From an uncultured virus (IMG/VR IMGVR_UViG_3300006145_000002) (Duplodnaviria > Heunggongvirae > Uroviricota > Caudoviricetes), in IMG/VR virus record IMGVR_UViG_3300006145_000002: 64,000 nucleotides of DNA; one strand, written 5' to 3'. Positions within the stretch are counted from its first letter, which is position 1. Each line of letters opens with the position of its first letter. Below are positions 1-47,705 of the stretch, piece by piece. Both the position numbers and the translations under genes were made by a program. The notes beneath the pieces were generated by a model. That model was not told where the DNA came from. It ran no database searches and saw nothing but the letters and a program-made list of their open reading frames with translations.

Positions 1-339
1 GATGAAAAATATATCGCAGAGCGTCATGCGAAAGATTTGCTTGATTGTTTAAAGTGTATGGGTTGTCCAGCAGCTACAATGTATTGATATGAAAGGAGCA
101 AGTAAAATGAATTATGTATATAAGATCGCTTATTTAGCTAAAGATGGAGGCACGTTCCACGGATTGCCTTATCTTCATGATGAAGCATTTTCAGATATTG
201 ATAATGCAAGAAAAACGCAAAAGGAATTAAAAGAAGCTGGTTTCAAAGGTGTAGAAATTTTTAAAGTTCCAGATGTTCCAGATGAAATCACATGGGGTTA
301 TGTTGAGGCCAATAAAGTTGAATAAGCGGAGGTAATATA

Positions 340-13858: not shown

Positions 13859-13950
13859 TGGAGAATGGTGGAATTGGTAGACACACCGTACTATGGAGCG
13901 GCGAAGGTAGCGCAGCCTTCTTGTAGGTTCAAGTCCTACTTCTCCAGCCA
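13859..13950 (+). tRNA. atypical class II tRNA, apparent anticodon AUG, irregular anticodon stem
   Basis: Acceptor TGGAGAA/TTCTCCA plus GCCA, Leu-like D-arm GGTGGAATTGGTAGACAC, variable arm GAAGGT/GCCTTC, T-arm GTAGG-TTCAAGT-CCTAC. Confidence 0.75.
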
Positions 13951-15508: not shown

Positions 15509-16234
15509 GTGATCGAGTTGCATATCAAAGCTGATCCTGTAAGCAATGTAAAGATGCTTTCTTTGCTTTCTCTGTTGAGTAAGTACGACCTTTTCCATAT
15601 TTCAGCCGATAATGGTCGTGAATTTAATGCGACAGAAATTGTTGGTGATAATGCAGGGTATATGGAATTTAAACGGCTTTTTGCTAATTCGGTTCATTCC
15701 AATGGTTATGTAGTAGATATTCAGGCCATAAGTGAAATTGAGTTTATTTGCAAAACATCTTCTGTTGTATATCACATTTCCGCCTTACATACGAAGCAGC
15801 AAGATTCTATTATCAGAGAACGAAAAATATGGAAAGAAATTTCTGATCTAATGTGTGTAGATTACTTTGGTGATCGTTTAATCAGCTATGTGAAAGAATT
15901 AGATATGCTGATATTGGTAGTTGATCCATCGCTGCTGGGTGAGTTACATCCTATGGAACAGCGGCAAATTCAACACATCATCAATGTTTATTTAAATGGC
16001 TATTCTGATTCCATGCAAATGAGCCGTACTGTGTGTTTCCAGATTAAATTACATGACGGACGCAATAGAATTTATGCGGGAGTATATGATTTGGAAGGCC
16101 AGAATTCAATAACCAGTATTCCTATTTATGATGACCGGGACAAAGAAATAATTGCTGATGATCTCTACAATAAAGCACAGGAGGTATTGAAATATGCAAA
16201 AGAGATGGCAGCAAAATTTTCCTTTCAAAACTAA
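15509..16234 (+). CDS. hypothetical protein divergent from the repressor
   Basis: 241-aa ORF with AGGAG RBS. Confidence 0.65.
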   Translation: MIELHIKADPVSNVKMLSLLSLLSKYDLFHISADNGREFNATEIVGDNAGYMEFKRLFANSVHSNGYVVDIQAISEIEFICKTSSVVYHISALHTKQQDSIIRERKIWKEISDLMCVDYFGDRLISYVKELDMLILVVDPSLLGELHPMEQRQIQHIINVYLNGYSDSMQMSRTVCFQIKLHDGRNRIYAGVYDLEGQNSITSIPIYDDRDKEIIADDLYNKAQEVLKYAKEMAAKFSFQN

Positions 16235-16318
16235 AGATTGTGCTTGACATTTGTGGTCAAGCATGATAGTATAATAACAGGTTATTCAATAATAGATATA
16301 GATAGGGGGGGTGCTGAT

Positions 16319-16672
16319 ATGAGGACTATAAAAAGAGGCGATATTTTCTATGCTGATTTAAGTCCAGCCATAGGAAGTGAGCAGGGTGGCACAAGGCCAG
16401 TTTTGATAGTTCAAAATGATGTAGGAAATTATCATAGTCCAACAGTAATTGTTGCTATTTTAACATCCAAATCAAAGAAAAAACTTCCTACTCATATCAG
16501 CATTCATTCAGGTGAAGGTAATATTACAATGGATTCTACGGTTTTACTGGAGCAAATACGAACGATTGATAAGTTTCGGCTACAAAAATATGTTGGTAGC
16601 GTTTCCGATGATACAATGGATCGTGTTGACCGGGCCATGCTGATAAGTCTTGGCCTCAGTAATTCGGCATAA
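16319..16672 (+). CDS. mazF: MazF/PemK family endoribonuclease
   Basis: IKRGDIFYADLSPAIGSEQGGTRPVLIVQND, LEQIRTIDK. Confidence 0.93.
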   Translation: MRTIKRGDIFYADLSPAIGSEQGGTRPVLIVQNDVGNYHSPTVIVAILTSKSKKKLPTHISIHSGEGNITMDSTVLLEQIRTIDKFRLQKYVGSVSDDTMDRVDRAMLISLGLSNSA

Positions 16673-16743: not shown

Positions 16744-17706
16744 ATGATTGAGCAATCCGTTATGGATAGGTATATCGCAGAATCATCCTTAAAAATGACA
16801 GAAATGAGCAGGATCAATTTTGAAAATCTCTTGACCAGATTTTTCAATCTGAAACCTTCGGTAGAATTTGCCGATCTAAGAAAAGCAGATTTGATTGAAA
16901 TGTATTCTCAGTTGAATCAACATTCTATTGGCGGGTTCATTACACATAAAAGTAAAGTTAATGATTTTGCCAAATGGATGTATGAACAAGGTTATGGATC
17001 GGCTGAATTGCTGCGTGATATTTCTGATCTAAAGTATTCGGACATAAATCACGATTATCTGTATGATATTTACTATTTCAGAGATGTTGAAGAATTATGG
17101 AATTCTATGTCGCTGATATTTGAAGATCGAGGAACGGAGTTTGATACATTTAAGGCGGCTGCTATAATGGTATGGCTGGGGATTGATTTGAATGATCTGC
17201 CAGACATATTAAAAATTGATATAGATGAATCAAGTCAAAGTATTATTCATCCAGTTACAAGACAGAAAGTTGAATTACCACCAGTTGATTTGCGTGATAA
17301 AATATTTTCCTTTTTGGTTAGCTATCGTGATGCGGATTCATGCGATACAAGAAAATTTGGCGGCAGAGTTCTTCCTTATATGCAAAGTAAATATTTATTA
17401 CGAAGCTATAAGAATGCTCATCTTACAGTGATTCAACTAAGGAAAACATCTGATCCAGTAAATCAATTAGCAAAAGATCAAGAATCACAAAGAGTTTTTC
17501 AATGGAATAAAATTTACTTGTCTGGCCTGTATTATCGTATCAATCAATATGAAAAGCAGCATGGTTCAATAGAAAATGATATGAGTATGCTAAATGAGTT
17601 TTTTACGTGCAATCAGAAAAAAGAAGTTCAAAAAGAAATATCATTTGCCAGAAAGTATAAAGAATATCAAGCGTTTATGAATGCGAAAGAAAAAATAAAT
17701 GTTTGA
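16744..17706 (+). CDS. tyrosine-recombinase-fold protein, probably non-catalytic (candidate repressor)
   Basis: Size, SAM-like N-domain ending DFAKWMYEQG, WLGI..NDLPDILKIDID segment without the catalytic Arg, IYLSG. No HxxR motif. Confidence 0.5.
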   Translation: MIEQSVMDRYIAESSLKMTEMSRINFENLLTRFFNLKPSVEFADLRKADLIEMYSQLNQHSIGGFITHKSKVNDFAKWMYEQGYGSAELLRDISDLKYSDINHDYLYDIYYFRDVEELWNSMSLIFEDRGTEFDTFKAAAIMVWLGIDLNDLPDILKIDIDESSQSIIHPVTRQKVELPPVDLRDKIFSFLVSYRDADSCDTRKFGGRVLPYMQSKYLLRSYKNAHLTVIQLRKTSDPVNQLAKDQESQRVFQWNKIYLSGLYYRINQYEKQHGSIENDMSMLNEFFTCNQKKEVQKEISFARKYKEYQAFMNAKEKINV

Positions 17707-17712
17707 ATTCGG

Positions 17713-17739
17713 GTTTTAAGGGGGCCAACCTCTTAAAAC
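17713..17739 (+). terminator. hairpin after the recombinase-like gene
   Basis: GTTTTAAGGGG / CCTCTTAAAAC inverted repeat. Confidence 0.55.
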
Positions 17740-17774
17740 TTACATAAATAACGGTATAATCAATAATAATTATA

Positions 17775-17852
17775 TCGCAAAGTAGTTCAATTGGAAGAAC
17801 GCTCTGGTGATGTGCTGGGGCTATGTTGGTTCGAGTCCAACCTTTGCGAACA
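17775..17852 (+). ncRNA. tRNA-like element with non-canonical anticodon arm
   Basis: Acceptor (T)CGCAAAG/CTTTGCG(A), D-arm GTTC/GAAC, T-arm GTTGG-TTCGAGT-CCAAC. Ends in ACA, not CCA. Confidence 0.7.
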
Positions 17853-17887
17853 TCAAAATTCAAAAATCAAAAAAGGAGTAATGTAAT

Positions 17888-18535
17888 ATGACTGCTGAAA
17901 CTATGACCGTACATAAGGCCCTTGCTGAACTGAAGATTCTTGGTGGTCGCATTGAGGGCGCAATTCTGAGTGGTGATTTTGTTATCACGAAGAAGAACAA
18001 CCAAGATACTGTAAAAGGCAAAACGGTAGAGCAGTATAAGGCCAAGGCTACAGAGGCTTTCCAGAAGGCATCTGATCTGATTCGCCGCCGCAACGCAATT
18101 AAGAATGCTGTGGTTGTTTCTAATGCTAAGACTATGGTGAAAATTGGCGACAAGGAGTATACGGTGGTTGAGGCCATTGAAAAGAAGAATCACGGTATGG
18201 ACTATTACATTCAGCTTCGTGATATTCTTCGCCAGCAGCTTTCAAAGCAGAAAACCGAACTGGAGAAGCATAACGCCTCTCTTCAGCAGAAGGCAGAACA
18301 ATTTGCTGTGGCAATGATGGGCGGCAAAGATGTAAAGGATGTAAAGACCGATAGTGATGAGTATGTTGCTTCGATGAATACTTACATCAAGGCAAATACT
18401 ATGACGCTGCTTGATCCGCTTGGTATCGAAGCAAAGATTGAGGAACTGGATGACATGATTAACACATTCCTGCCCGAAGTGGATGCGGCTCTGTCGGTAA
18501 GTAATGCGGTAACTACCATTACTGTCGAATACTAA
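17888..18535 (+). CDS. alpha-helical coiled-coil protein (resembles DIP1984/DUF6847-like family)
   Basis: MTVHKALAELK..., DLIRRRNAIKNAVVVSNAKT, EVDAALSVSNAVTTI. Strong AAGGAG RBS. Confidence 0.65.
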   Translation: MTAETMTVHKALAELKILGGRIEGAILSGDFVITKKNNQDTVKGKTVEQYKAKATEAFQKASDLIRRRNAIKNAVVVSNAKTMVKIGDKEYTVVEAIEKKNHGMDYYIQLRDILRQQLSKQKTELEKHNASLQQKAEQFAVAMMGGKDVKDVKTDSDEYVASMNTYIKANTMTLLDPLGIEAKIEELDDMINTFLPEVDAALSVSNAVTTITVEY

Positions 18536-18539
18536 AAGC

Positions 18540-18914
18540 TATCTACTCGCTGCGTAACGAAAACTGCAAACCATAACACGCCTGAGTTTAGGTAATGTTC
18601 TGAGGTGTAAATTAATAAAAACATTACCGCCTATAAAAAATTACAGTCTCATAAACTGAGAATATACATATCAAAAAAGAATTAATATTATTCAAGTTTC
18701 TAATAGTAAATTGGAAATTGTAAATGATGACTGTAAAGTTCAAGGCTGAAAGCTGAAGGTTCAAACTTCGCAAAGTTCAAAGTTTATGAATCCTTCAAAG
18801 CTGAAAGATTAGGCAACAAAGACAAAAGTTTTACAAAATCCTTGGTATATGGTTTTTGGAATTGTTATGCTTGTCCAGCAGCTAACCACAAGGCTGTTAC
18901 GTAGCGAGTCGATA
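18540..18914 (+). ncRNA. predicted ~370-nt structured RNA
   Basis: Closing stem ACTCGCTGCGTAAC 18545-18558 / GTTACGTAGCGAGT 18896-18909, several internal helices, no ORF. Confidence 0.7.
18735..18832 (+). repeat. imperfect heptamer repeats, consensus AAAG(T/C)T(C/G)
   Basis: AAAGTTC AAGGCTG AAAGCTG AAGGTTC AAACTTC gc AAAGTTC AAAGTTT ... AAAGCTG AAAGATT ... AAAGTTT. Confidence 0.75.
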
Positions 18915-19005
18915 TATAGAATGTCTGATAGATACTATCGGGCATTCTGTCCAGAACTTAATAAAATGAGTTTTGGGTAGAGTGTCCGATGTAAGGAGTG
19001 ATTAA

Positions 19006-19293
19006 TTGCACAAGAAAGTAATAGCGTTCATTGATAGGTTTACATCTGGCGGCAAATTAAACGACACAATTACCACGTTTACACAAGGATGCTGTTATTG
19101 GTTTGCGTACATTTTGCACAGCAGATTTTCAAATTCTATTATTATGTATGATCCTTTAGAGAATCACTTTGTTGTAGAAATTGAAAAGCGGCTTTACGAT
19201 ATAACAGGGGAAGTCACTGGGCAATACAATGTTGTTCGTTGGAATAAGTACCCTGATAAAAGAGGCATTATTCGAGACTGTATTAAATTTTAA
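19006..19293 (+). CDS. hypothetical protein (possible papain/transglutaminase-like C-H-D fold)
   Basis: QGCCYWFA...NHFVV...LYDITG. AAGGAG RBS. Confidence 0.55.
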   Translation: MHKKVIAFIDRFTSGGKLNDTITTFTQGCCYWFAYILHSRFSNSIIMYDPLENHFVVEIEKRLYDITGEVTGQYNVVRWNKYPDKRGIIRDCIKF

Positions 19294-19306
19294 AGGAGAA
19301 TGTAAA

Positions 19307-20089
19307 ATGGAACTTCGTATTGATCAGAGTGTTTTGGATCAGTTTCCCAACCTGAATGTTGCCAAGGAGGGTAATGATGTAATCACAGTTAAGTTCGGTG
19401 ATGGCGGCAATTCTGATTTTCTGTTTCCTTTGAATTTCCCGCTGCATAATCTTGATTCTCTTTCTTGGAGCAGGATTGATGAGATTGGTCGTGCTGGCAA
19501 GGCCAAAACCCTCTTTGCGCTGGGTGCTACTAAGAAGGATTACATGAAAAATGGGTTTATTGCCGAATATCAGATTATAGACTTTGACCATGATGATCTT
19601 GCTGATGGTAGCGGCAAGGCTCCTATCAGTTGGGATATGGTTGCGCTTTATAAGGATGAGATTTATATGAAGCGCAATAGCGAGTCCTCTTGCTGGGATG
19701 AGTGCGATGGACGTACATTCCTGAATGGCGAGTTCTATGAGAATATGTCCGATGAACTTCGTGCTATTGTCAAGCCTGTATGGAAGTTGACCGCTAATAA
19801 GAACGGCGAAATTGTTAAGTCCAAGGATTATGTCTGGCTGAAGTCTGAAAAGGAATTGTTTGGACGTACAATTTATTCCAATGATGGTGAAGGTCACTGG
19901 TATGCGCTGTTTATGCAGGAGGATTTTCCGTGGTTCAAGTTGAACGGCGACAATGAGCGAGACTGGCAATGGCTGCGCTCTGTGTATGCTGGCCACACGT
20001 ACTCTTTTTGCTGTGTCTACACTTCTGGAGCGGCGGGTGACTCCTGCTCTGGCTATTCCAGTGGGGTCGCCCCGGCCTTCTGTACCTAA
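19307..20089 (+). CDS. DUF6273-like C-type-lectin-fold protein, probable DGR target
   Basis: IIDFDHD, VWLKSEKE, C-terminal WQWLRS...FCCV...GVAPAFC. Confidence 0.75.
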   Translation: MELRIDQSVLDQFPNLNVAKEGNDVITVKFGDGGNSDFLFPLNFPLHNLDSLSWSRIDEIGRAGKAKTLFALGATKKDYMKNGFIAEYQIIDFDHDDLADGSGKAPISWDMVALYKDEIYMKRNSESSCWDECDGRTFLNGEFYENMSDELRAIVKPVWKLTANKNGEIVKSKDYVWLKSEKELFGRTIYSNDGEGHWYALFMQEDFPWFKLNGDNERDWQWLRSVYAGHTYSFCCVYTSGAAGDSCSGYSSGVAPAFCT

Positions 20090-20187: not shown

Positions 20188-22374
20188 ATGAGGGTTTTAC
20201 TTTTGCTCCGTGGCTCTGCTGGAGTGGGTAAGTCCACTTATATTAAGGAACATGATCTGGAGCAGTATGCGCTTTCTGCCGACAATATCCGTTTGATGTG
20301 CCAATCACCCGTTTTGCAAACAGATGGATCGGTAGCAATTAGTCAGACAAATGAAAAGCTGGTATGGAATCTTATGTTCCAGATGCTTGAGGCCAGAATG
20401 CAGCGTGGCGAATTTGTGGTGATTGATGCAACCAATTCTAAGACGCAGGACATTAATAGATATAAAGATATGGCAAAGACGTATCGGTATCGTATGTACT
20501 GCGTTGATATGACAGGAGTACCCATTGACGAATGTAAGCGGCGTAACAAACTCAGACCGCCTTACAAACAGGTTCCAGATGAAGTAATCGAAAAGATGTA
20601 TTCCAGATTTGAGACACAGCAAGTTCCAACTGGCGTGACTGTGATTCAGCCTGACGAACTGGATACTATCTGGTATAAACCTGCTAATTTTGATCGCTAC
20701 AAGCGGATTCATCATATCGGTGATATTCATGGTTGTAATACTGTCCTGCAAGAGTATCTGAAAGATGGTATGCACGATGATGAACTGTATATTTTCTGCG
20801 GCGATTATATTGATCGTGGTATCGAAAATGTTGAAGTTATTAAGTTCCTTTTCAATATCATGGATAAGCCGAATGTGATTCTGCTGGAGGGCAATCATGA
20901 ACGCTGGCTTTGGTATTGGGCGCATGGTGGCACATCTCAGTCTAAAGAATTTGAGAATGTAACACGGCGGCAGCTTGAAGCTGGGGGGTTGGATACTAAG
21001 GTTGCTCGAATGTTGTATCGTAAACTTAATCAGTGTGTGTATTATAGGTTTGGTGAAAAGACTGTGCTTGTTACTCATGCTGGTTTGAGTTTGATTCCTG
21101 ATAATCTGACTAAGGTTGCATCTGAACAGATGATCCGTGGTGTTGGTCGATATGGCGACTATCTTGATGTAGCAGCTACTTTCGATCAGACAATGCCTGA
21201 AAATACATATCAAATCTTTGGTCATCGTAATACCGAAGATTCTCCCATTGCAATGTCAGATCGGTGTTTTAATCTGGAGGGAGCGATTGAACAGGGCGGT
21301 TGCCTAAGAGCCGTTGTTTTGGATGCAGATGGGTTCCATCCTGTTATGATCCAGAATACCGTATTTCGCCAGCGAGAGGAAGTTGCTCCTGTTGGATATA
21401 CCGCAGAAGAAAAGAGCGTAATGGATGTTGTCGATAAGCTGCGGCAAAATCGCTACATCTATGAAAAACAGCTTGGTAACATTTCATCCTTTAACTTTAC
21501 TCGTGATGCTTTTTATGATAAGAAATGGAATGAACAGACTACTAAAGCACGTGGCCTGTTTATTGATACCGCTAATGGCATAGTGGTAGCACGTTCTTAT
21601 CCTAAGTTCTTCAATGTTAATGAGCGTCCTGAAACCAGATTCGGTATGCTCCAGTATAAGTTGAAGTTCCCTGTAACGGTTTACGTAAAGGAAAATGGAT
21701 TCCTTGGTATGGTATCTTATAATCCTGAAACGGACGATTTCTTCATTGCAAGCAAGTCAACAACAGAGGGTGATTTTGCGGGTTGGTTGCGGGATATGTT
21801 CTTTAAGAATGTAAAAAATCCTGATAAACTGAAAGATTATCTGAAGCGCAAGAATGTAACCCTTGTGTTTGAATGCGTGGATATGGCTAATGATCCGCAT
21901 ATCATTAAGTATGATACTTCTCATCTGTTTTTGTTGGATGTAGTCAAGAATCAGCTTGATTTTGAAAAGTTGCCATATACTCAAGTTGTTGAACTTGGCA
22001 ATGAATACGGGTTTGAAGTTAAGACAAGGGCAGTTCAGCTTCAAAATTGGCATGAGTTCCGTGATTGGTATAATGATGTACTTGCAGAGGATTATCAGTT
22101 CAACGGGCGTATCATTGAAGGCTTTGTAGTAGAAGATAGTGTTGGCTTTATGGTAAAGATTAAACTTGACTATTACAAGCTATGGAAACATATGCGTGGC
22201 GTTGCACAATCTGTTTTTAGAAGCGGTTACTATCGGCGTATGGGTTCGTTGCTCACACCGCTCCAAAATCAGTTTTATGGGTTCTGTCAGGAAATTGCAA
22301 AGCAAGAAGATCATCCTACTAATATTATTGAACTGCGAGATATTTTTATGTCTCAATATAACCCAAGCAAATAA
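20188..22374 (+). CDS. Pnkp-like RNA repair enzyme: P-loop kinase + metallophosphoesterase + RNA ligase
   Basis: GSAGVGKS/DATN, GDIHG/GDYIDRG/EGNHE, KFFN, KENG (ligase motif I), EGFVV, KIK. Confidence 0.9.
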   Translation: MRVLLLLRGSAGVGKSTYIKEHDLEQYALSADNIRLMCQSPVLQTDGSVAISQTNEKLVWNLMFQMLEARMQRGEFVVIDATNSKTQDINRYKDMAKTYRYRMYCVDMTGVPIDECKRRNKLRPPYKQVPDEVIEKMYSRFETQQVPTGVTVIQPDELDTIWYKPANFDRYKRIHHIGDIHGCNTVLQEYLKDGMHDDELYIFCGDYIDRGIENVEVIKFLFNIMDKPNVILLEGNHERWLWYWAHGGTSQSKEFENVTRRQLEAGGLDTKVARMLYRKLNQCVYYRFGEKTVLVTHAGLSLIPDNLTKVASEQMIRGVGRYGDYLDVAATFDQTMPENTYQIFGHRNTEDSPIAMSDRCFNLEGAIEQGGCLRAVVLDADGFHPVMIQNTVFRQREEVAPVGYTAEEKSVMDVVDKLRQNRYIYEKQLGNISSFNFTRDAFYDKKWNEQTTKARGLFIDTANGIVVARSYPKFFNVNERPETRFGMLQYKLKFPVTVYVKENGFLGMVSYNPETDDFFIASKSTTEGDFAGWLRDMFFKNVKNPDKLKDYLKRKNVTLVFECVDMANDPHIIKYDTSHLFLLDVVKNQLDFEKLPYTQVVELGNEYGFEVKTRAVQLQNWHEFRDWYNDVLAEDYQFNGRIIEGFVVEDSVGFMVKIKLDYYKLWKHMRGVAQSVFRSGYYRRMGSLLTPLQNQFYGFCQEIAKQEDHPTNIIELRDIFMSQYNPSK

Positions 22375-22411
22375 CGATATAATCAATAAGGAGTGATGAA
22401 TTATAAATCCA

Positions 22412-40821: not shown

Positions 40822-41393
40822 TCCATGACAGTGCTTGAATTTCTTATGGATGTTAAACGGATTCCATATTGGGATCGCACTCCAGCAATTAGTGATGAAG
40901 AATTGGATAAACTTATTGACTTAGCAAAACCCCATGAAATTTCTTTTAGGCAATATCCAATTCTTCAAAGCAAGCCGCCACAGACAATTCCGTGGGCCAT
41001 GCTTATTCCGCATGAAACACAAGCATGGCTCAATCATCATCAAACTCTTGAAGAATTAGCAAATAGAGGTGGATTAGGTTGGGCAGAAGCACTCGCCATT
41101 TTGGAAGATAAGAAATGGCGAGATGCTATTCACAGTGAAAAAGAAGCAGAGCCTATTGTTAAAAGGCTTGTTGCTGAATTTATGAAATTTCAAGAGGGAT
41201 GAAAATGATTGGCAATTTATTGTTGAGATTTCATGCAAGAAAATCAACTCATCCAATGAAAGATTTCTATTCAAAATCCGATTTTGCTCTTATATTAGCA
41301 ACGGAAGATGGATATATGGAAAGACTTCCAAGATGGGTATGGTGGTTTTAATAATAAAAAATATAATATGAATATGAATTAAGGAGGACAAAT

Positions 41394-41687
41394 ATGAAGA
41401 AAATTATTGCACTTATGATTGGTTTAGTGTTGTGTATTAGTCTTTGTGCTTGTACACAGGAAGAAATTAATTATGGAACTAATGCGGGATTTATAGCCAT
41501 TACAGGAAGGGATTATCTATATTATGATAGCAACACAAAGATTGTTTATGTTATGTATAGTGAAAAGTGTGGTTATGGCGGTTATGGATATATGTCACCT
41601 TATTATGCACCGAATGGGTTCCCCTATCGTTATGATGCAAACAATCAAACTTTAATTGAAATTGATGGTGGTGGGATTAGTGGCTAA
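41394..41687 (+). CDS. lipoprotein
   Basis: MKK, hydrophobic stretch, LCAC lipobox. Confidence 0.65.
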   Translation: MKKIIALMIGLVLCISLCACTQEEINYGTNAGFIAITGRDYLYYDSNTKIVYVMYSEKCGYGGYGYMSPYYAPNGFPYRYDANNQTLIEIDGGGISG

Positions 41688-43347
41688 TCTTACAAAATAT
41701 GAACAAGAGACTATCATCAATTATAACAATGAAGAAAAGACAGCATCTATCTTTACTTATGATAAATCCCTTATAAGAAAGCTGGACAAAAGATTAGCAG
41801 ATCATCCAGATATTAAGGTGCTTCGGAGAGGTGATGATTGGGCTGAATATAGTTTGCCTAAGAAATGGATAAAGGTTGGATTCCCAAGACAATTATCTGA
41901 TGAACAAAGGGCAGAAATGGCAAATAGAATGAAAATGGCAAGGAATATATAGTAATGAAAGAAATTATGAAATGCTCAATTTGTAATGCAGAAAATACAA
42001 GACAATATTGGACAGAGGAATTTGGTATAGTTGAAGATTATTATTATTGTAATTTTTGTGGGTATTTTCACGAAATGGCATATAGTCCATGTAATGAGGG
42101 AATTGAATTAATGAGTAACTTCAAAAAATTCATCAAACAAATAATCATTTTGTTAAAACATTTTAATAATACTCGTAAATATCAGTTCAGTAGATCACAT
42201 TGTTTTTAGAGAGGTGCAAATGAGAACTAAAAATGAATTGTTTTTGCTTGGTGAAGTATCTATTTTACTTCAGTACCTTTTTATGAGCGAAAAGCATACT
42301 ATCACATTTAGCAATGGACTTACAAGCCTAAAAATTAGAATGGATGAGAATTTTAATATTAGGTGCAAAAATTTAAACTTTCCTGATGTTTCTGAATGTG
42401 ATTTTACCGAGCAGATGACACCTTTATATACGTTGGGAGTAATTCAAATCCTTCAAAAAATGCCGCCCGAAGAATTTAAAGACTCATTCAAAAATCGTTG
42501 GGATGAAATAAGGCAAATCACATTATCCAATCTTGCCCTAAACAGAAAGTAAGTTAAGCATAATGGCAAGATTCAAAGTAAAAGAAATTGATTGTTATTA
42601 TCCCTCTGATACAATTTTGAATTTTATTGATTATGCAGAATCTAATTTGCACAACATTGGGCGATATAATGGTTCCTTATCATTGTATCACAAATGCTTA
42701 TATATTAAGCGAAAGGATTCATTAATGTATAAATATGGGCCAGACCGATTTAGTGACATTCAAAGATTAAAACAATTCATGCGTAGGTGTTATCGAGAAA
42801 TCAGTTTATGGGGAGAGAAGAATGGAGGTGCTTAATGGGAGAGACTGAAAATACAGGTGTTCTTTATTTGGATGGTAAGCCATTACGTTTAACTGAAATG
42901 CCTGAAATTACATTTGACTCATCTATAGATGGAAAAGATATAATTGGTGCATTTTCATGTGATAGAAGTTGTTCATTTACAGCAACATTTAGATATTCTA
43001 AAATGAGTCGCAAAAGATTTGTTCGTAACTTAATGAAACAAGGATATTCAAAAAAGGTTGCAAAATGGTTATCGTGGTACTGCAATAAAAAGAGAATCCC
43101 ATATAGCAAAGCCAATACGCTAATTGCTCTTGGATTATCGGTGAGGTGATTTTATGGAAAGATGGCGAGAAGAAGTTGAATTTGATCCTGAAGCGATGGA
43201 ACGGATTGTGGATGTAGTAGACCATTATCCTATGTCTTTGCGTGATTGTGCAAGGATAATTGAAGCTGCTGCTTTATTATGCAGACATAAAACGCCTAAT
43301 GGAGTTATTGCAGAATTAAATAAGCTAACTGAACAATATGGATTGAG

Positions 43348-43887
43348 GTGATAAATATTTTAGAATTATATAAATACACTGATAAGGAAATTGATCAACT
43401 TGTTCGGTCTATTGTAATTCTTACCGATACCAGAGAACAAAAGAATCAGCATATTCTTGATTGGCTTGATAAAAAGAAAATTCCCCATAAAACAAAAGCG
43501 TTGTCAAATGGTGATTACAGTTTCTATGTTCCTGCTAATCCTGATCTAAATATTGACCGAGATTTGTTCTTTGATAAAGAAATTATGGTAGAGCGCAAAG
43601 GATCACTGGAGGAACTGAGCGGTAACTTTTCGCAGCAAAGAGCAAGGTTTGAAGAAGAAATGGCTACTTATCCCGGCGTAAAGTATTTGTTGATAGAGAA
43701 TGCAAACTATCAAGATATTGTTACTGGTAAATATGATACTAAGTTTTCATCCAAAGCCTATCTTGCCAGTTTACATACTTTCAATCATCGGTATGGCCTA
43801 CAAATGATGTTCATGCCCGATCCGCAATATTCAGGGTATTTTCTCTACGGAGTTTTTACCTACTTTTTGAAACAAATTCTGAGATAG
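43348..43887 (+). CDS. ERCC4/XPF-family nuclease
   Basis: DTREQ, GDYS, VERKGSLEEL. Confidence 0.88.
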   Translation: MINILELYKYTDKEIDQLVRSIVILTDTREQKNQHILDWLDKKKIPHKTKALSNGDYSFYVPANPDLNIDRDLFFDKEIMVERKGSLEELSGNFSQQRARFEEEMATYPGVKYLLIENANYQDIVTGKYDTKFSSKAYLASLHTFNHRYGLQMMFMPDPQYSGYFLYGVFTYFLKQILR

Positions 43888-47473: not shown

Positions 47474-47705
47474 TAAGAAAGGAAATTAGAAATGAATCGT
47501 AAGCAAAAGCAAAATGAGCAGAAGCCAAAAGGAGAAAACAAAAAGTGCTGCATGGAATGCGGATCGTCCAGTGGTACACTACACAAGATTAAGAAACCTA
47601 ATGGTAAGAAGGGTTATCTTTGCGGATTCTGCTTCGATGCTTACAGAGAACATGGCAATTAACTTTGGCAAAATAACGATATAATCAATAACAAGGAGGA
47701 ATTAC

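Follow-up and report, generated by a model that had tools for sequence, protein, structure and literature searches.

A segment of the genome of an uncultured Caudoviricetes virus (IMG/VR IMGVR_UViG_3300006145_000002), analysed here as a single stretch of 64,000 nt (the window), is probably, if by no means certainly, a stable and compact non-coding RNA which works with the 215-aa protein encoded upstream of it, the two forming a module carried in tRNA transcription units. The segment spans positions 18545-18909, and its most likely form is a ribonucleoprotein (RNP) in which phased heptanucleotide units serve as periodic binding sites. The pairing of a helical protein with a structured RNA, proposed in a preliminary description of this DNA, turned out to be a conserved two-part module: the RNA lies directly 3' of the protein gene in 99 of 104 loci fetched with the protein (nhmmer profile of 4 sequences), and the partner protein is the only family common to all loci compared (45/45). 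The features of the locus are collected in Table 1.

The DNA following the 215-aa ORF is ORF-poor up to 19005, in agreement with the ORF-free block described earlier, and the proposed closing stem (18545-18558/18896-18909, with one G-U pair and a TATC/GATA extension) is present, one further pair bringing it to the 15-bp P1. Between the end of the RNA and the next ORF there are 96 nt. The 45 downstream regions, aligned at full length with MAFFT, left too many gaps for the alignment to be of use; at homologous anchors, 12-15 of the 15 P1 positions are paired in 41 of 45 non-redundant relatives. The covariation check suggested in the preliminary description gave a positive outcome: P1, the CCUUG/CAAGG helix and a small hairpin all covary across 41 relatives, as does a long-range pseudoknot. 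P1 itself has 96.6% of cells paired and both-side (compensatory) changes in 14 of its 15 pairs, while the whole structure reaches 79.6% of cells paired, against 60.3% in shuffled controls (0/500 shuffles as high) and 37-44% when the structure is slid along the alignment. Since G.U cells outnumber A.C cells by 137 to 14 over P1, K, P4 and P5, the RNA is read from the + strand of the gene; in P1, 38 of 41 sequences have a G-U pair at column 15/598, and 24 have one at column 8/605.

Table 1. Features of the tRNA, protein and RNA unit (window coordinates; all on the + strand)
Feature	Position	Strand	Remarks
Promoter-like site, TTAAAA-16-TATAAT	17733-17766	+	10/12 match, the best of the region
tRNA gene, His, anticodon atg	17775-17851	+	37 nt upstream of the ORF
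215-aa partner protein (phrog_1491; T5.085 family)	17888-18535	+	PHROGs E 1.7e-52
Structured RNA, P1 to P1	18545-18909	+	365 nt; extendable via TATC/GATA to 18540-18914
P1, 5' strand	18545-18559	+	partner 18895-18909; 15 bp
RAGATH-27 (RF03100) match	18546-18629	+	37.3 bits, E 0.0092; gathering score 76.1
Conserved GAAAAC after P1 5' strand	18559-18564	+	
K5, 5' half of long-range pseudoknot, CAUAACA	18572-18578	+	pairs with 18863-18869
5' H-type pseudoknot	18579-18628	+	S1 crosses S2
S1	18579-18586/18600-18607	+	
S2, GGTAATGTT/AACATTACC	18591-18599/18620-18628	+	the RAGATH-27 hairpin
A-rich loop of 5' pseudoknot	18608-18619	+	
P3, TTACAGTC/GACTGTAA	18641-18648/18729-18736	+	encloses variable region
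Heptad array I	18732-18782	+	7 units NNNAARG
U-rich spacer between arrays, UUUAUGAAUCCU	18783-18794	+	
Heptad array II	18795-18828	+	5 units
3' core	18840-18893	+	P4, P4b, P5
P4, CCTTG/CAAGG	18840-18844/18889-18893	+	99.5% of cells paired (41 sequences)
P4b	18850-18854/18884-18888	+	67.5% paired
P5 hairpin	18857-18860/18874-18877	+	82.0% paired; loop holds K3
K3, UGUUAUG, within P5 hairpin loop	18863-18869	+	pairs with 18572-18578
P1, 3' strand	18895-18909	+	partner 18545-18559
13-bp hairpin 3' of the RNA	18919-18947	+	two U.G pairs, no U tract

Within the closed fold, P1 stacks beside P4, a helix which appears in nine sequence variants, and both-side changes are found in each of P4, P4b and P5. 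The long-range pseudoknot K is paired in 92.1% of cells, with both-side changes in 7/7 pairs (41 sequences) and 24 distinct 7-mers at the K5 position among the 41 sequences. A pseudoknot had indeed been anticipated, but with the wrong partner: CCTTG/CAAGG was expected to cross a helix formed by AAACCATA and TATGGTTT, which are complementary in the window but pair at shuffle level in the family (61.3% against 61.1% with shuffled columns, 252/500 shuffles as high). That helix was rejected; GGUU pairs instead with AACC in P4b, and the actual pseudoknot partners are K5 and K3. Of the other helices named in the preliminary description, GGTAATGTT/AACATTACC and TTACAGTC/GACTGTAA are present and have counterparts in relatives, as does the near-invariably paired CCTTG/CAAGG, whereas TTTCTAAT/ATTGGAAA falls in the variable, indel-rich middle region inside P3 and is not conserved. 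For P3 itself the paired share is 64% of cells, in an alignment with many gaps. The crossing stems of the 5' pseudoknot, S1 and S2, are visible in the sequence itself and, by our count, recur at the homologous place and with differing sequences in 24/41 relatives; in the MAFFT alignment these stems are poorly paired (35-59%), apparently because of length variation, and a brute-force pseudoknot search gave a modest gain (15.2 bp against 12.8 bp in shuffled sequences). The P5 loop AAUUGUUAUG resembles the T4 RegA site, a likeness treated as coincidence, given the covariation between this loop and K5.

The heptads occupy a seemingly single-stranded stretch of ~95 nt between P3 and P4. The two arrays, of 7 + 5 units (NNNAAAG), hold strictly to a 7-nt register in the whole family: in 41 elements, successive AA[AG]G motifs are spaced by 7 nt 96 times, by 14 nt 32 times and by 21 nt 14 times, compared with 9 spacings of 6 nt and 7 of 8 nt, and alignment segment A5 has invariant A columns 7 nt apart. 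Array II of one relative (L071), for instance, reads TTTAAAG, ATTAAAG, AATAAAG, CATAAAG, AATAAAG. The spacer opens with UUUA in most of the 41 sequences and is variable in length (~10-13 nt in most rows). In the window, nine AARGNT sites lie on the + strand in 18735-18830 (spacings 7, 7, 7, 16, 7, 18, 7, 21), where the frequency over the window as a whole (430 sites in 64 kb, counting both strands) would lead one to expect ~0.3. The earlier count of about ten heptamers is sound only for the looser NNNAARG unit; the strict AAAG(T/C)T(C/G) form occurs only four times. The register kept throughout the family fits a periodic ligand, while the consensus of the units varies by lineage (YUNARUG in L044, NGUAAAN in L038), so that a single sequence-specific reader is not obvious. 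Complementarity of the heptads to the anticodon loops of UUN tRNAs was also considered and dropped, since the many units of the form NNUAAAG would call for a UUA anticodon and the heptads in L044 and L038 do not suit U33.

The linkage of RNA and protein holds down to 33% protein identity. As for the five loci missed by the profile, in two the contig stops no more than 95 nt from the gene, and the other three (L038, L039, L044) show P1 with 14-15 of 15 positions paired. Scans with sequence patterns also returned chance loci: L010, L015, L016 and L023 and, in a further scan, 92 of 119 loci, 49 of these 92 being evaluable and 43 having too little upstream DNA. The RNA signature was found in 0/49 evaluable matches without the protein, a figure of limited power, since the same strict test recovered only 12 of 27 protein-bearing loci. 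The protein is carried by 743 phage records and the T5-type RNA by 444, most of which, among the matches listed, are without annotation at that place. The element was seen 3' of a homolog in the T5-like phage LmqsSP1, Bacillus phage Hobo, Pseudomonas phage phiPsa347, Vibrio phage Morian, Lactococcus phage AM4 and Clostridium phage D-1873, and in phage T5 and its relatives it stands unannotated behind T5.085, between T5.085 and T5.084. In Aeromonas phage LAh_6, whose homolog has 26.5% identity, the element was not recognised in the 607-nt gap which follows the gene. A blastn search of the locus against phage records gave a single weak 107-nt match, and no description of the RNA was found in the available portions of the T5 stable-RNA and T5 transcriptome literature.

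The unit is preceded, as described earlier, by a phage-wide motif, which proved promoter-like: a 22-nt family (D1, of the AAATAACGGTATAATCAATAA type) occurs 9 times in the window, including the copy at 17745-17766, and the site 17733-17766 may act as a promoter, to judge from its sequence match. A 14-nt identity to window positions 42-76 (family D7) falls in apparent coding sequence. What had been called a tRNA-like element is a tRNA according to both ARAGORN and Rfam (45.6 bits, cut-off 29). One or more tRNAs occur in 30/44 representative loci, co-oriented in all but one locus; by our count, at least 11/44 representative loci have a co-oriented tRNA whose end is no more than ~60 nt from the start of the protein, and in at least 6 loci a tRNA starts 6-12 nt past P1, while the variable region of P3 holds a tRNA or a T-arm-like hairpin in 8/41 relatives. 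The position between MazF and an RNA ligase, to which the preliminary description drew attention, is lineage-specific and outside the module (MazF in 6/45 loci); the recurrent context is tRNA genes, not MazF or the ligase. At the other end, the 13-bp hairpin in 18919-18947 may be a 3' end or processing signal, and GAATGTCTGATA comes after P1 in close relatives. In three RNA-seq runs, belonging to two studies, there are contigs which extend over the tRNA, the ORF and the RNA (for instance 17738-19629 in run X9), although transcription is not shown thereby; in X9, positions 17653-17737 are without a contig and depth is lower beyond 19630, but contigs cannot show ends or levels.

The claim that no named RNA class is present stands for most of the element, but not for its 5' quarter, which is Rfam RAGATH-27. 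The Rfam check proposed earlier gave this match over only ~86 of 365 nt and, in the window, below threshold; the match covers model positions 1-86 of 86, with a single non-standard pair flagged among the 7 of the hairpin. Scores at the same place in relatives are 83.3 bits (L081) and 77.1-92.9 bits (L102, L100, L071, L088, L032, L070); the threshold was reached in 6/20 loci scanned and in none of the T5-like or Bacillus versions. The matches above threshold begin 1 nt into P1 of elements which align full-length with that of the window. RAGATH-27 and the first ~86 nt of the element thus share the 5' strand of P1, the conserved GAAAAC...AAAC strand, the S2 hairpin and the A-rich loop, whereas the model, with 86 positions and a single 7-bp hairpin, has no P1 pairing, neither of the pseudoknots, no P3, no heptad arrays and no 3' core. 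The remainder of the element is absent from Rfam. As RAGATH-27 is an orphan motif, sub-threshold in the window and limited to this part, novelty is reduced rather than removed. No account of RAGATH-27 was found in full-text literature, nor anything relevant by title or abstract for RAGATH with phage and tRNA, and the term does not occur in the main text of PMC5737381; more may be said where the motif was first described. The scan of 17000-19600 at E<=10 returned no RNase P RNA, group I/II intron, riboswitch or tmRNA, and ARAGORN likewise found no tmRNA.

The upstream ORF (17888-18535, 215 aa) is present as described, and 3591 clusters (50% identity) match its product at E<=0.001. No Pfam family was above cut-off, no match in a profile search of the PDB had an E below 0.07, and Foldseek found no PDB match at E<=0.001, the best PDB structural match being 3kdq, a functionally uncharacterised protein (Z 11.3, rmsd 6.1, 151 aligned). 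Matches in BFVD are all uncharacterised phage proteins and those in the Atlas are labelled only 'hypothetical protein'; neither an SSB family or fold nor any likeness to gp32 was detected by Pfam, profile and fold searches. The AF2 model is a helical bundle with a small sheet (pLDDT 86.2). In line with the oligomer suggested earlier, the protein is predicted to form a homodimer (score 0.65, best of 3 controls 0.00), with runs agreeing in at least 94% of contacts and a partner pLDDT of at least 88. In calibration, this mark was reached by 20/30 proteins whose solved structures pair two copies of one chain and by 1/23 proteins solved as single chains, counts which hold only roughly because our own alignment was used. 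A symmetric, closed dimer such as the one predicted does not on its own account for cooperative binding to twelve sites or for the 7 + 5 split. Furthermore, members of the family are slightly acidic, with a median pI of 5.6 and a net charge between -7 and +1, although ten basic positions are conserved; RNA-coating proteins are mostly not acidic, and this counts against a simple coating role. The widespread 'tail fiber' label traces to phrog_1491 and T5.085. It is treated here as a probable, propagated misnomer, on account of the helical-bundle model, the position of the gene among tRNAs and early genes, and the CRISPRi-ART data, where the part consulted (supplementary file 7, PMC11879866) re-annotates T5.085 as unknown/other and lists it as 'Not Fit'. 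No description of T5.085 was found in the literature.

Several known systems combine some of these traits. TRAP and HutP are ring proteins which read evenly spaced RNA triplets, one short motif per subunit, the UAG sites of HutP being 7 nt apart; their sites are 5' leader attenuators with GAG/UAG triplets and the proteins are beta-rich or alpha/beta rings, whereas the present element has AAR-centred units, is located 3' of the gene and is accompanied by a helical-bundle protein. In Ro60-Y RNA particles, pairing of the 5' and 3' ends closes the RNA, the RNA gene adjoins that of the protein, and bacterial YrlA has a tRNA-like domain. The present element is likewise an ends-closed RNA next to a protein gene, with a tRNA or tRNA-like module in 8/41 members and, in the window, an RNA repair ligase nearby, the latter neighbourhood being lineage-specific; no TROVE/Ro60 Pfam domain was found in 8 ORFs around the element and YrlA had no Rfam match in the window scan. 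T4 gp32 covers ~7 nt per monomer. The T4 gene 32 operator, as described in the accessible part of PMC535899, is a pseudoknot beside unstructured UUAAA/UAAA repeats to which gp32 binds cooperatively; the element similarly joins pseudoknots to twelve A-rich phased units. The operator is a 5' leader which overlaps the ribosome-binding site of the regulated gene and has ~40 nt of repeats, while the element is 3' of its gene, a closed fold of ~350 nt with twelve phased units.

In the RNP favoured here, the promoter-like motif at 17733-17766 would drive transcription of the tRNA, ORF and RNA as a unit, and the enzymes which process flanking tRNAs would trim the RNA, with P3 as a variable arm able to host a tRNA. 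The folded core would then present the heptad stretch as a single-stranded platform, to be coated cooperatively by a protein with a footprint of ~7 nt, one site per subunit, much as gp32 works on its own mRNA operator, a pseudoknot beside UUAAA repeats. The simplest candidate for the binder is the co-encoded protein, about six predicted symmetric dimers of which would occupy the twelve sites. The particle would be an accessory factor, dispensable for T5 in the laboratory host, and would probably act on RNA or tRNA metabolism, or against host defence.

The acidity of the protein raises the question of whether another molecule reads the heptads. The RNA might be a decoy or sponge for some other host or phage factor with a ~7-nt footprint (a single-strand-binding, cold-shock, S1, Hfq-like or nuclease protein), the neighbouring protein belonging to the same pathway and not binding the heptads. 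A register kept from Gram-positive to Gram-negative hosts would suit such a universal ligand, the reader in the gene 32 precedent is an SSB, and T5 can do without T5.085 in the laboratory, which is common among counter-defence factors. We nevertheless regard a decoy as rather unlikely: it leaves unexplained why the RNA is not seen without the partner protein, and the lineage shifts of the heptad consensus speak against one universal reader.

GOLLD and ROOL, of ~580-800 nt, invite a second comparison. They are large structured RNAs, often of phages or prophages, which lie beside tRNAs and are possibly co-transcribed with them (PMC5737381), and they are reported to form RNA-only multimers (bioRxiv 10.1101/2024.12.08.627333), as far as the parts of these sources consulted describe them. 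The element shares the phage context with tRNAs (30/44 loci, and 17775-17851 in the window), and its complex fold with two pseudoknots might likewise be an RNA-only machine or assembly, for which the protein is a chaperone or simply co-transcribed. It is smaller than either, and neither a heptad array nor a protein partner of their own is mentioned for them in the consulted parts of those sources. The 8 Rfam matches at E<=10 in 17000-19600 include neither family, and neither is matched in the loci of 8 relatives at E<=0.1. An RNA-only assembly is improbable, as it is difficult to see why ~95 nt of phased, apparently single-stranded heptads should be conserved if no ligand binds them, and the strict linkage of gene and RNA over a wide range also argues against it.

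The onset of P1 9 nt past the stop codon (8-25 nt in most relatives), together with the autoregulatory gp32 precedent, would accommodate a cis-acting 3' UTR, either a stabiliser or an autoregulatory operator for the protein's own mRNA. This is distinctly improbable: a 3' operator without a ribosome-binding site is unlike known translational operators, ~350 nt with two pseudoknots far exceed what a stabiliser needs, and processing of P3-nested tRNAs would sever the RNA from the mRNA. A DNA-level element (an iteron replication origin, a packaging site or a recombination site) is very improbable, for although the middle is A+T-rich with short direct repeats and both strands outfold shuffles (z -4.88 on +, -6.36 on -; 0/100 shuffles each), the G.U excess over A.C shows selection on one transcribed strand, two pseudoknots covary, the 7-nt repeat is off the DNA helical repeat and the element points in the same direction as the gene and, with one locus excepted, as the tRNAs.

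The RNP proposed here also has a bolder form, which we consider unlikely: a near-universal RNP of large tRNA-carrying phages, with a doubly knotted core, twelve phased heptads and six protein dimers, matured by tRNA enzymes and acting on tRNA or translation, or against defences which target tRNA or RNA. If true, this would be a new class of viral RNP without cellular counterpart, ranging from T5 to phages of Bacillus, Lactococcus, Pseudomonas and Vibrio.

The T5 element has escaped annotation even though T5 is a model phage, and an RNA of ~350 nt with two pseudoknots and a partner protein may belong to hundreds of large phages, the protein being present in 743 records. With the whole element in view, RAGATH-27 acquires a full architecture and a partner gene, and it can be studied genetically in T5 on E. 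coli K-12; the widespread 'tail fiber protein' label would be corrected as well. Beside GOLLD and ROOL, it would be the third of the large tRNA-associated phage RNAs and the first with a partner protein, and its phased heptads offer an unusually clear and testable prediction of periodic RNA-protein assembly.

The 215-aa gene of the partner protein is followed by a block (18536-19005) in which ORF and family scans found only short ORFs of 30-49 aa without a family match, and which holds a structured RNA at 18545-18909 on the + strand. The long-range closing stem proposed in the preliminary description around 18545 and 18896 is present and, with one added pair, forms the 15-bp helix P1. Both strands of the block fold far beyond shuffles (z -4.88 for + and -6.36 for -), so folding energy alone is uninformative on the strand. 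Just 3' of the RNA lies a 13-bp hairpin (18919-18947) that contains two U.G pairs, lacks a U tract and is kept in close relatives, to which the weak microRNA-family matches of Rfam at 18927-19001 correspond.

Covariation had been put forward as a check, and the regions downstream of the homologs do share a covarying structure. These regions were cut to 45 sequences below 92% identity and anchored on two invariant motifs, CGAAAAC after the 5' strand of P1 and AGGCUG before its 3' strand; at the anchors, 12-15 of the 15 P1 positions are paired in 41 of the 45. These 41 elements are very unlike in sequence and range from 255 to 476 nt. When pairs of the window-derived structure are counted on their MAFFT alignment, the share of paired cells is 79.6%, a level reached by none of 500 shuffles (60.3%), and the covariation score likewise exceeds that of the shuffles (0.473 versus 0.162). 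Sliding the structure by 1-3 columns gave 37-44% paired, a somewhat flattering control since the structure derives from one of the aligned sequences; the many compensatory pair types are independent of that bias. A further helix of the preliminary description, AAACCATA/TATGGTTT, gave no signal (61.3% paired versus 61.1% shuffled). Finally, G.U pairs exceed A.C oppositions by 137 to 14 over P1, the long-range pseudoknot K, P4 and P5, which identifies the selected strand as +, shared with the gene and the tRNAs.

The 5' domain folds into an H-type pseudoknot, in which S1 crosses S2, followed by an A-rich third loop. It scores poorly on the gappy MAFFT alignment (35-59% paired); an alignment-free search, read manually, placed S1 and S2 at the corresponding position in 24 of 41 relatives, where the stems are built from other sequences; their total length is modestly above shuffles (15.2 versus 12.8 bp). 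P3 surrounds a variable arm rich in indels.

Features of the RNA locus and its surroundings (window positions unless a relative's locus, L, is named; paired cells and both-side changes refer to the alignment of 41 elements)
Feature	Position	Strand	Remarks
MazF/PemK-like gene	16238-16672		119.9 bits
Upstream hairpin	about 17713-17739		sequence
Best promoter-like site of the region	17733-17760		match 10 of 12, within 22-nt motif
tRNA gene	17775-17851	+	ARAGORN and Rfam
Partner protein ORF	17888-18535	+	215 aa, ORF reading
P1, closing stem	18545-18559 with 18895-18909	+	15 bp; 96.6% paired; both-side changes 14/15
K, long-range pseudoknot	18572-18578 with loop 18863-18869		92.1% paired; both-side changes 7/7
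S1, 5' pseudoknot	18579-18586/18600-18607	+	
S2, 5' pseudoknot	18591-18599/18620-18628	+	
Heptad array I	18732-18782		7 units, between P3 and P4
Heptad array II	18795-18828		5 units, between P3 and P4
P4 (CCUUG/CAAGG), 3' core			99.5% paired; both-side changes 3/5
P4b, 3' core			67.5% paired; both-side changes 3/5
P5, 3' core			82.0% paired; both-side changes 4/4
Kinase-phosphatase-RNA ligase fusion	20188-22374		728 aa; phrog_8238, E 4.8e-224
YunG-like gene, DUF6273 gene			other neighbours, family matches
tRNAs nested in P3 arm	L107:2776-2943; L123:2827-2899; L099:2758-2829; L045:3776-3849		
T-arm-like hairpins in P3 arm	L032, L070, L106, L109		

A U-rich spacer separates the two heptad arrays. 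In the 41 elements, neighbouring AA[AG]G motifs lie apart by 7 nt 96 times, 14 nt 32 times, 21 nt 14 times, 28 nt 6 times, 6 nt 9 times and 8 nt 7 times; in the alignment the arrays are nearly gap-free, with invariant A columns at 7-nt intervals, and some lineages keep the register with an altered consensus (YUNARUG, NGUAAAN, CUUAANN). The alignment of 41 elements holds no conserved partner strand for the units, and one relative (L071) lacks the 6-bp pairing that the window would allow within the arrays; the arrays are thus taken as single-stranded, with a presumed reader whose period is 7 nt.

RNA and protein are linked over a wide range of phages. A word-indexed search retrieved 1636 relatives of the protein at E<=0.001 and a profile search 3591 clusters at 50% identity, with lengths of about 205-228 aa in all of the best 150 of the 3591. 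In DNA sampled around such relatives (viral contigs and one genome per species), an nhmmer profile built from just 4 close sequences found the element directly 3' of the protein gene in 99 of 104 protein-fetched loci; as for the five misses, two contigs stop at most 95 nt past the gene and three later gave a P1 with 14-15 of 15 positions paired. The protein was found by tblastn in 743 phage records, among them T5-like phages of Salmonella and Escherichia and phages of Pseudomonas, Vibrio, Bacillus, Klebsiella, Erwinia, Lactococcus and Aeromonas, and in all nine annotated records inspected (T5, a T5-like phage, Bacillus Hobo and six others) about 360-1230 nt without annotation lie behind the gene. 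By P1, the GAAAAC strand, P4, the K pairing and heptads, the element was recognised in T5-like LmqsSP1, Bacillus Hobo, Pseudomonas phiPsa347, Vibrio Morian, Lactococcus AM4 (P1 14/15) and Clostridium phage D-1873 (P1 15/15), and probably in Erwinia Deimos-Minion; it was not recognised in the 607-nt unannotated gap (L133:2137-2742) after the homolog of Aeromonas LAh_6. The latter homolog is 26.5% identical, and a 'putative RNA chaperone ProQ' gene (L133:1097-1393) lies directly 5' of its gene.

A search for the T5-type RNA matched 444 phage records, and beneath most of the listed matches no feature is annotated. In phage T5 it would occupy 43142-43504, minus strand, behind the homolog T5.085, a stretch that NC_005859 leaves unannotated save for a promoter feature at one end, with no RNA annotation. 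The same record has 'rnaX, stable RNA with unknown functions' at 40848-41566, about 1.5 kb from the element, and a Bacillus badius contig carries a c-di-GMP-I riboswitch (L040:103-188, 84.2 bits) about 2.8 kb 5' of its homolog.

Meaningful Rfam matches were to two families only, tRNA and the orphan motif RAGATH-27 (RF03100). The preliminary description had recognised no named RNA class; RAGATH-27 does match 18546-18629, at 37.3 bits, under its cut-off of 76.1. The homologous stretch passes that cut-off in relatives with an about 43-46% identical protein (83.3 bits in L081; 6 of 20 loci in another scan), the matches beginning 1 nt inside P1; RAGATH-27 therefore corresponds to the element's 5' quarter in one subclade, and this quarter is an already catalogued motif. 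Its model, which spans 86 positions and has a single hairpin, differs from the element in lacking the long-range pairings, the heptads and the 3' core, and Rfam leaves the other three quarters, as well as the T5-like and Bacillus versions, unmatched. No text on RAGATH-27 was found in the literature searched; supplementary material may describe it. Neither that literature, nor Rfam release 15, nor the annotations of the nine records describe the RNA at full length, the two long-range pairings, the phased arrays, the obligate partner protein or the presence in T5 and several other cultured phage groups, although supplements may add to this.

The partner protein has no Pfam family. PHROGs labels it 'tail fiber protein', as RefSeq does T5.085, a label that sits poorly with its context among tRNAs and early genes; CRISPRi-ART relabelled T5.085 'unknown/other' (PMC11879866). 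AF2 models a confident helical bundle (pLDDT 86.2), capped by a small sheet in which the two terminal strands join a central hairpin. Among PDB structures a single match stands out, the Corynebacterium protein 3kdq, itself without known function (Z 11.3, with 151 residues aligned at rmsd 6.1; next best Z 7.4); for helical bundles this may reflect just a common arrangement, and matches in the viral-structure library are exclusively uncharacterised phage proteins. Modelling supports a symmetric homodimer: the two-copy prediction, made with a custom alignment, so that the calibration counts apply only approximately, scored 0.65 against 0.00 for the best of three controls, a mark reached in calibration by 20 of 30 pairs-of-one-chain proteins and 1 of 23 single-chain proteins, and runs agreed in at least 94% of contacts with partner pLDDT of at least 88. 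Across the family the median pI is 5.6, mildly acidic, and ten basic positions are conserved.

Apart from the partner protein no gene family is widely common, the next real neighbour families reaching at most 9 of 45 loci. The setting between MazF and an RNA-repair ligase thus describes the window, where both genes lie near the element, and not the family, as MazF occurs in only 6 of 45 loci. The 728-aa fusion joins an AAA_33 kinase, a calcineurin-like phosphoesterase and a T4-type RNA ligase in a single chain that looks as if it could both heal and seal RNA. A 241-aa ORF (15509-16234), without family in Pfam or PHROGs, ends 4 nt before the MazF/PemK-like gene and may be its partner or antitoxin. 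The phage-wide motif noticed earlier is a 22-nt family, D1 (consensus about AAATAACGATATAATCAATAA, containing a TATAAT box), with 9 sites on the + strand between 10983 and 54650 (e.g. 17745-17766, 22368-22389, 47670-47691), and probably represents a promoter class of the phage itself. A Flintibacter muris DSM 110149 contig carries a 97%-identical protein and the same downstream element, which makes the host an Oscillospiraceae gut bacterium; runs holding the stretch and naming an organism are all mouse, gut or faecal metagenomes.

The recurrent companions are tRNAs. At least one tRNA gene is present in 30 of 44 representative loci, co-orientation being broken in one locus only; a tRNA often ends just 5' of the protein gene, the window included, and starts 6-12 nt past P1 in at least 6 loci. 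Moreover, 8 of the 41 elements hold a T-arm-like hairpin within the variable P3 arm, four of them with one or two complete tRNAs (ARAGORN). Such flanking and nested tRNAs naturally suggest maturation of the RNA by tRNA-processing enzymes, and processing of a nested tRNA would leave the RNA in two pieces joined by P1, P3 and K. RNA-seq library contigs run across tRNA, ORF and RNA, and are uninformative on ends, strand and level. In the window, ARAGORN calls the upstream tRNA His with the unusual anticodon ATG, and another tRNA (13859-13950), adjoining a tRNA-Ser, has an undetermined two-letter anticodon.

The best-supported reading is a two-part RNA-protein module: a compact, doubly knotted RNA core would display about 95 nt of phased heptads, to be bound periodically by a protein, the simplest candidate being the dimer encoded alongside. 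The closest well-studied parallel is the operator of T4 gene 32, a pseudoknot adjoining UUAAA/UAAA repeats with cooperative gp32 binding (PMC535899); the element differs in position, size and protein, so the likeness is one of analogy and not of membership. The analysis establishes the RNA as a structure under selection, with its strand, its architecture, its phage range and its linkage to the protein and to tRNAs; its transcription and processing, the unpaired state of the heptads, their binding by the partner protein and any biological role are inferences. As rivals, the arrays could be a decoy for another single-strand binder, the RNA could form an RNA-only assembly, or, lying directly behind the gene, it could be a cis-acting 3' UTR. 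A DNA element is nearly excluded by the G.U asymmetry. We rate the element as an extended, re-defined RAGATH-27 with a partner, with a real chance of a new class of viral ribonucleoprotein. In CRISPRi-ART, knocking down T5.085 did not lower fitness in the laboratory host (PMC11879866); the T5 tRNA-rich region is known to tolerate large deletions (PMC12483538). Periodic binding of the heptads by the partner would be a sharp prediction, and T5 offers direct testing.
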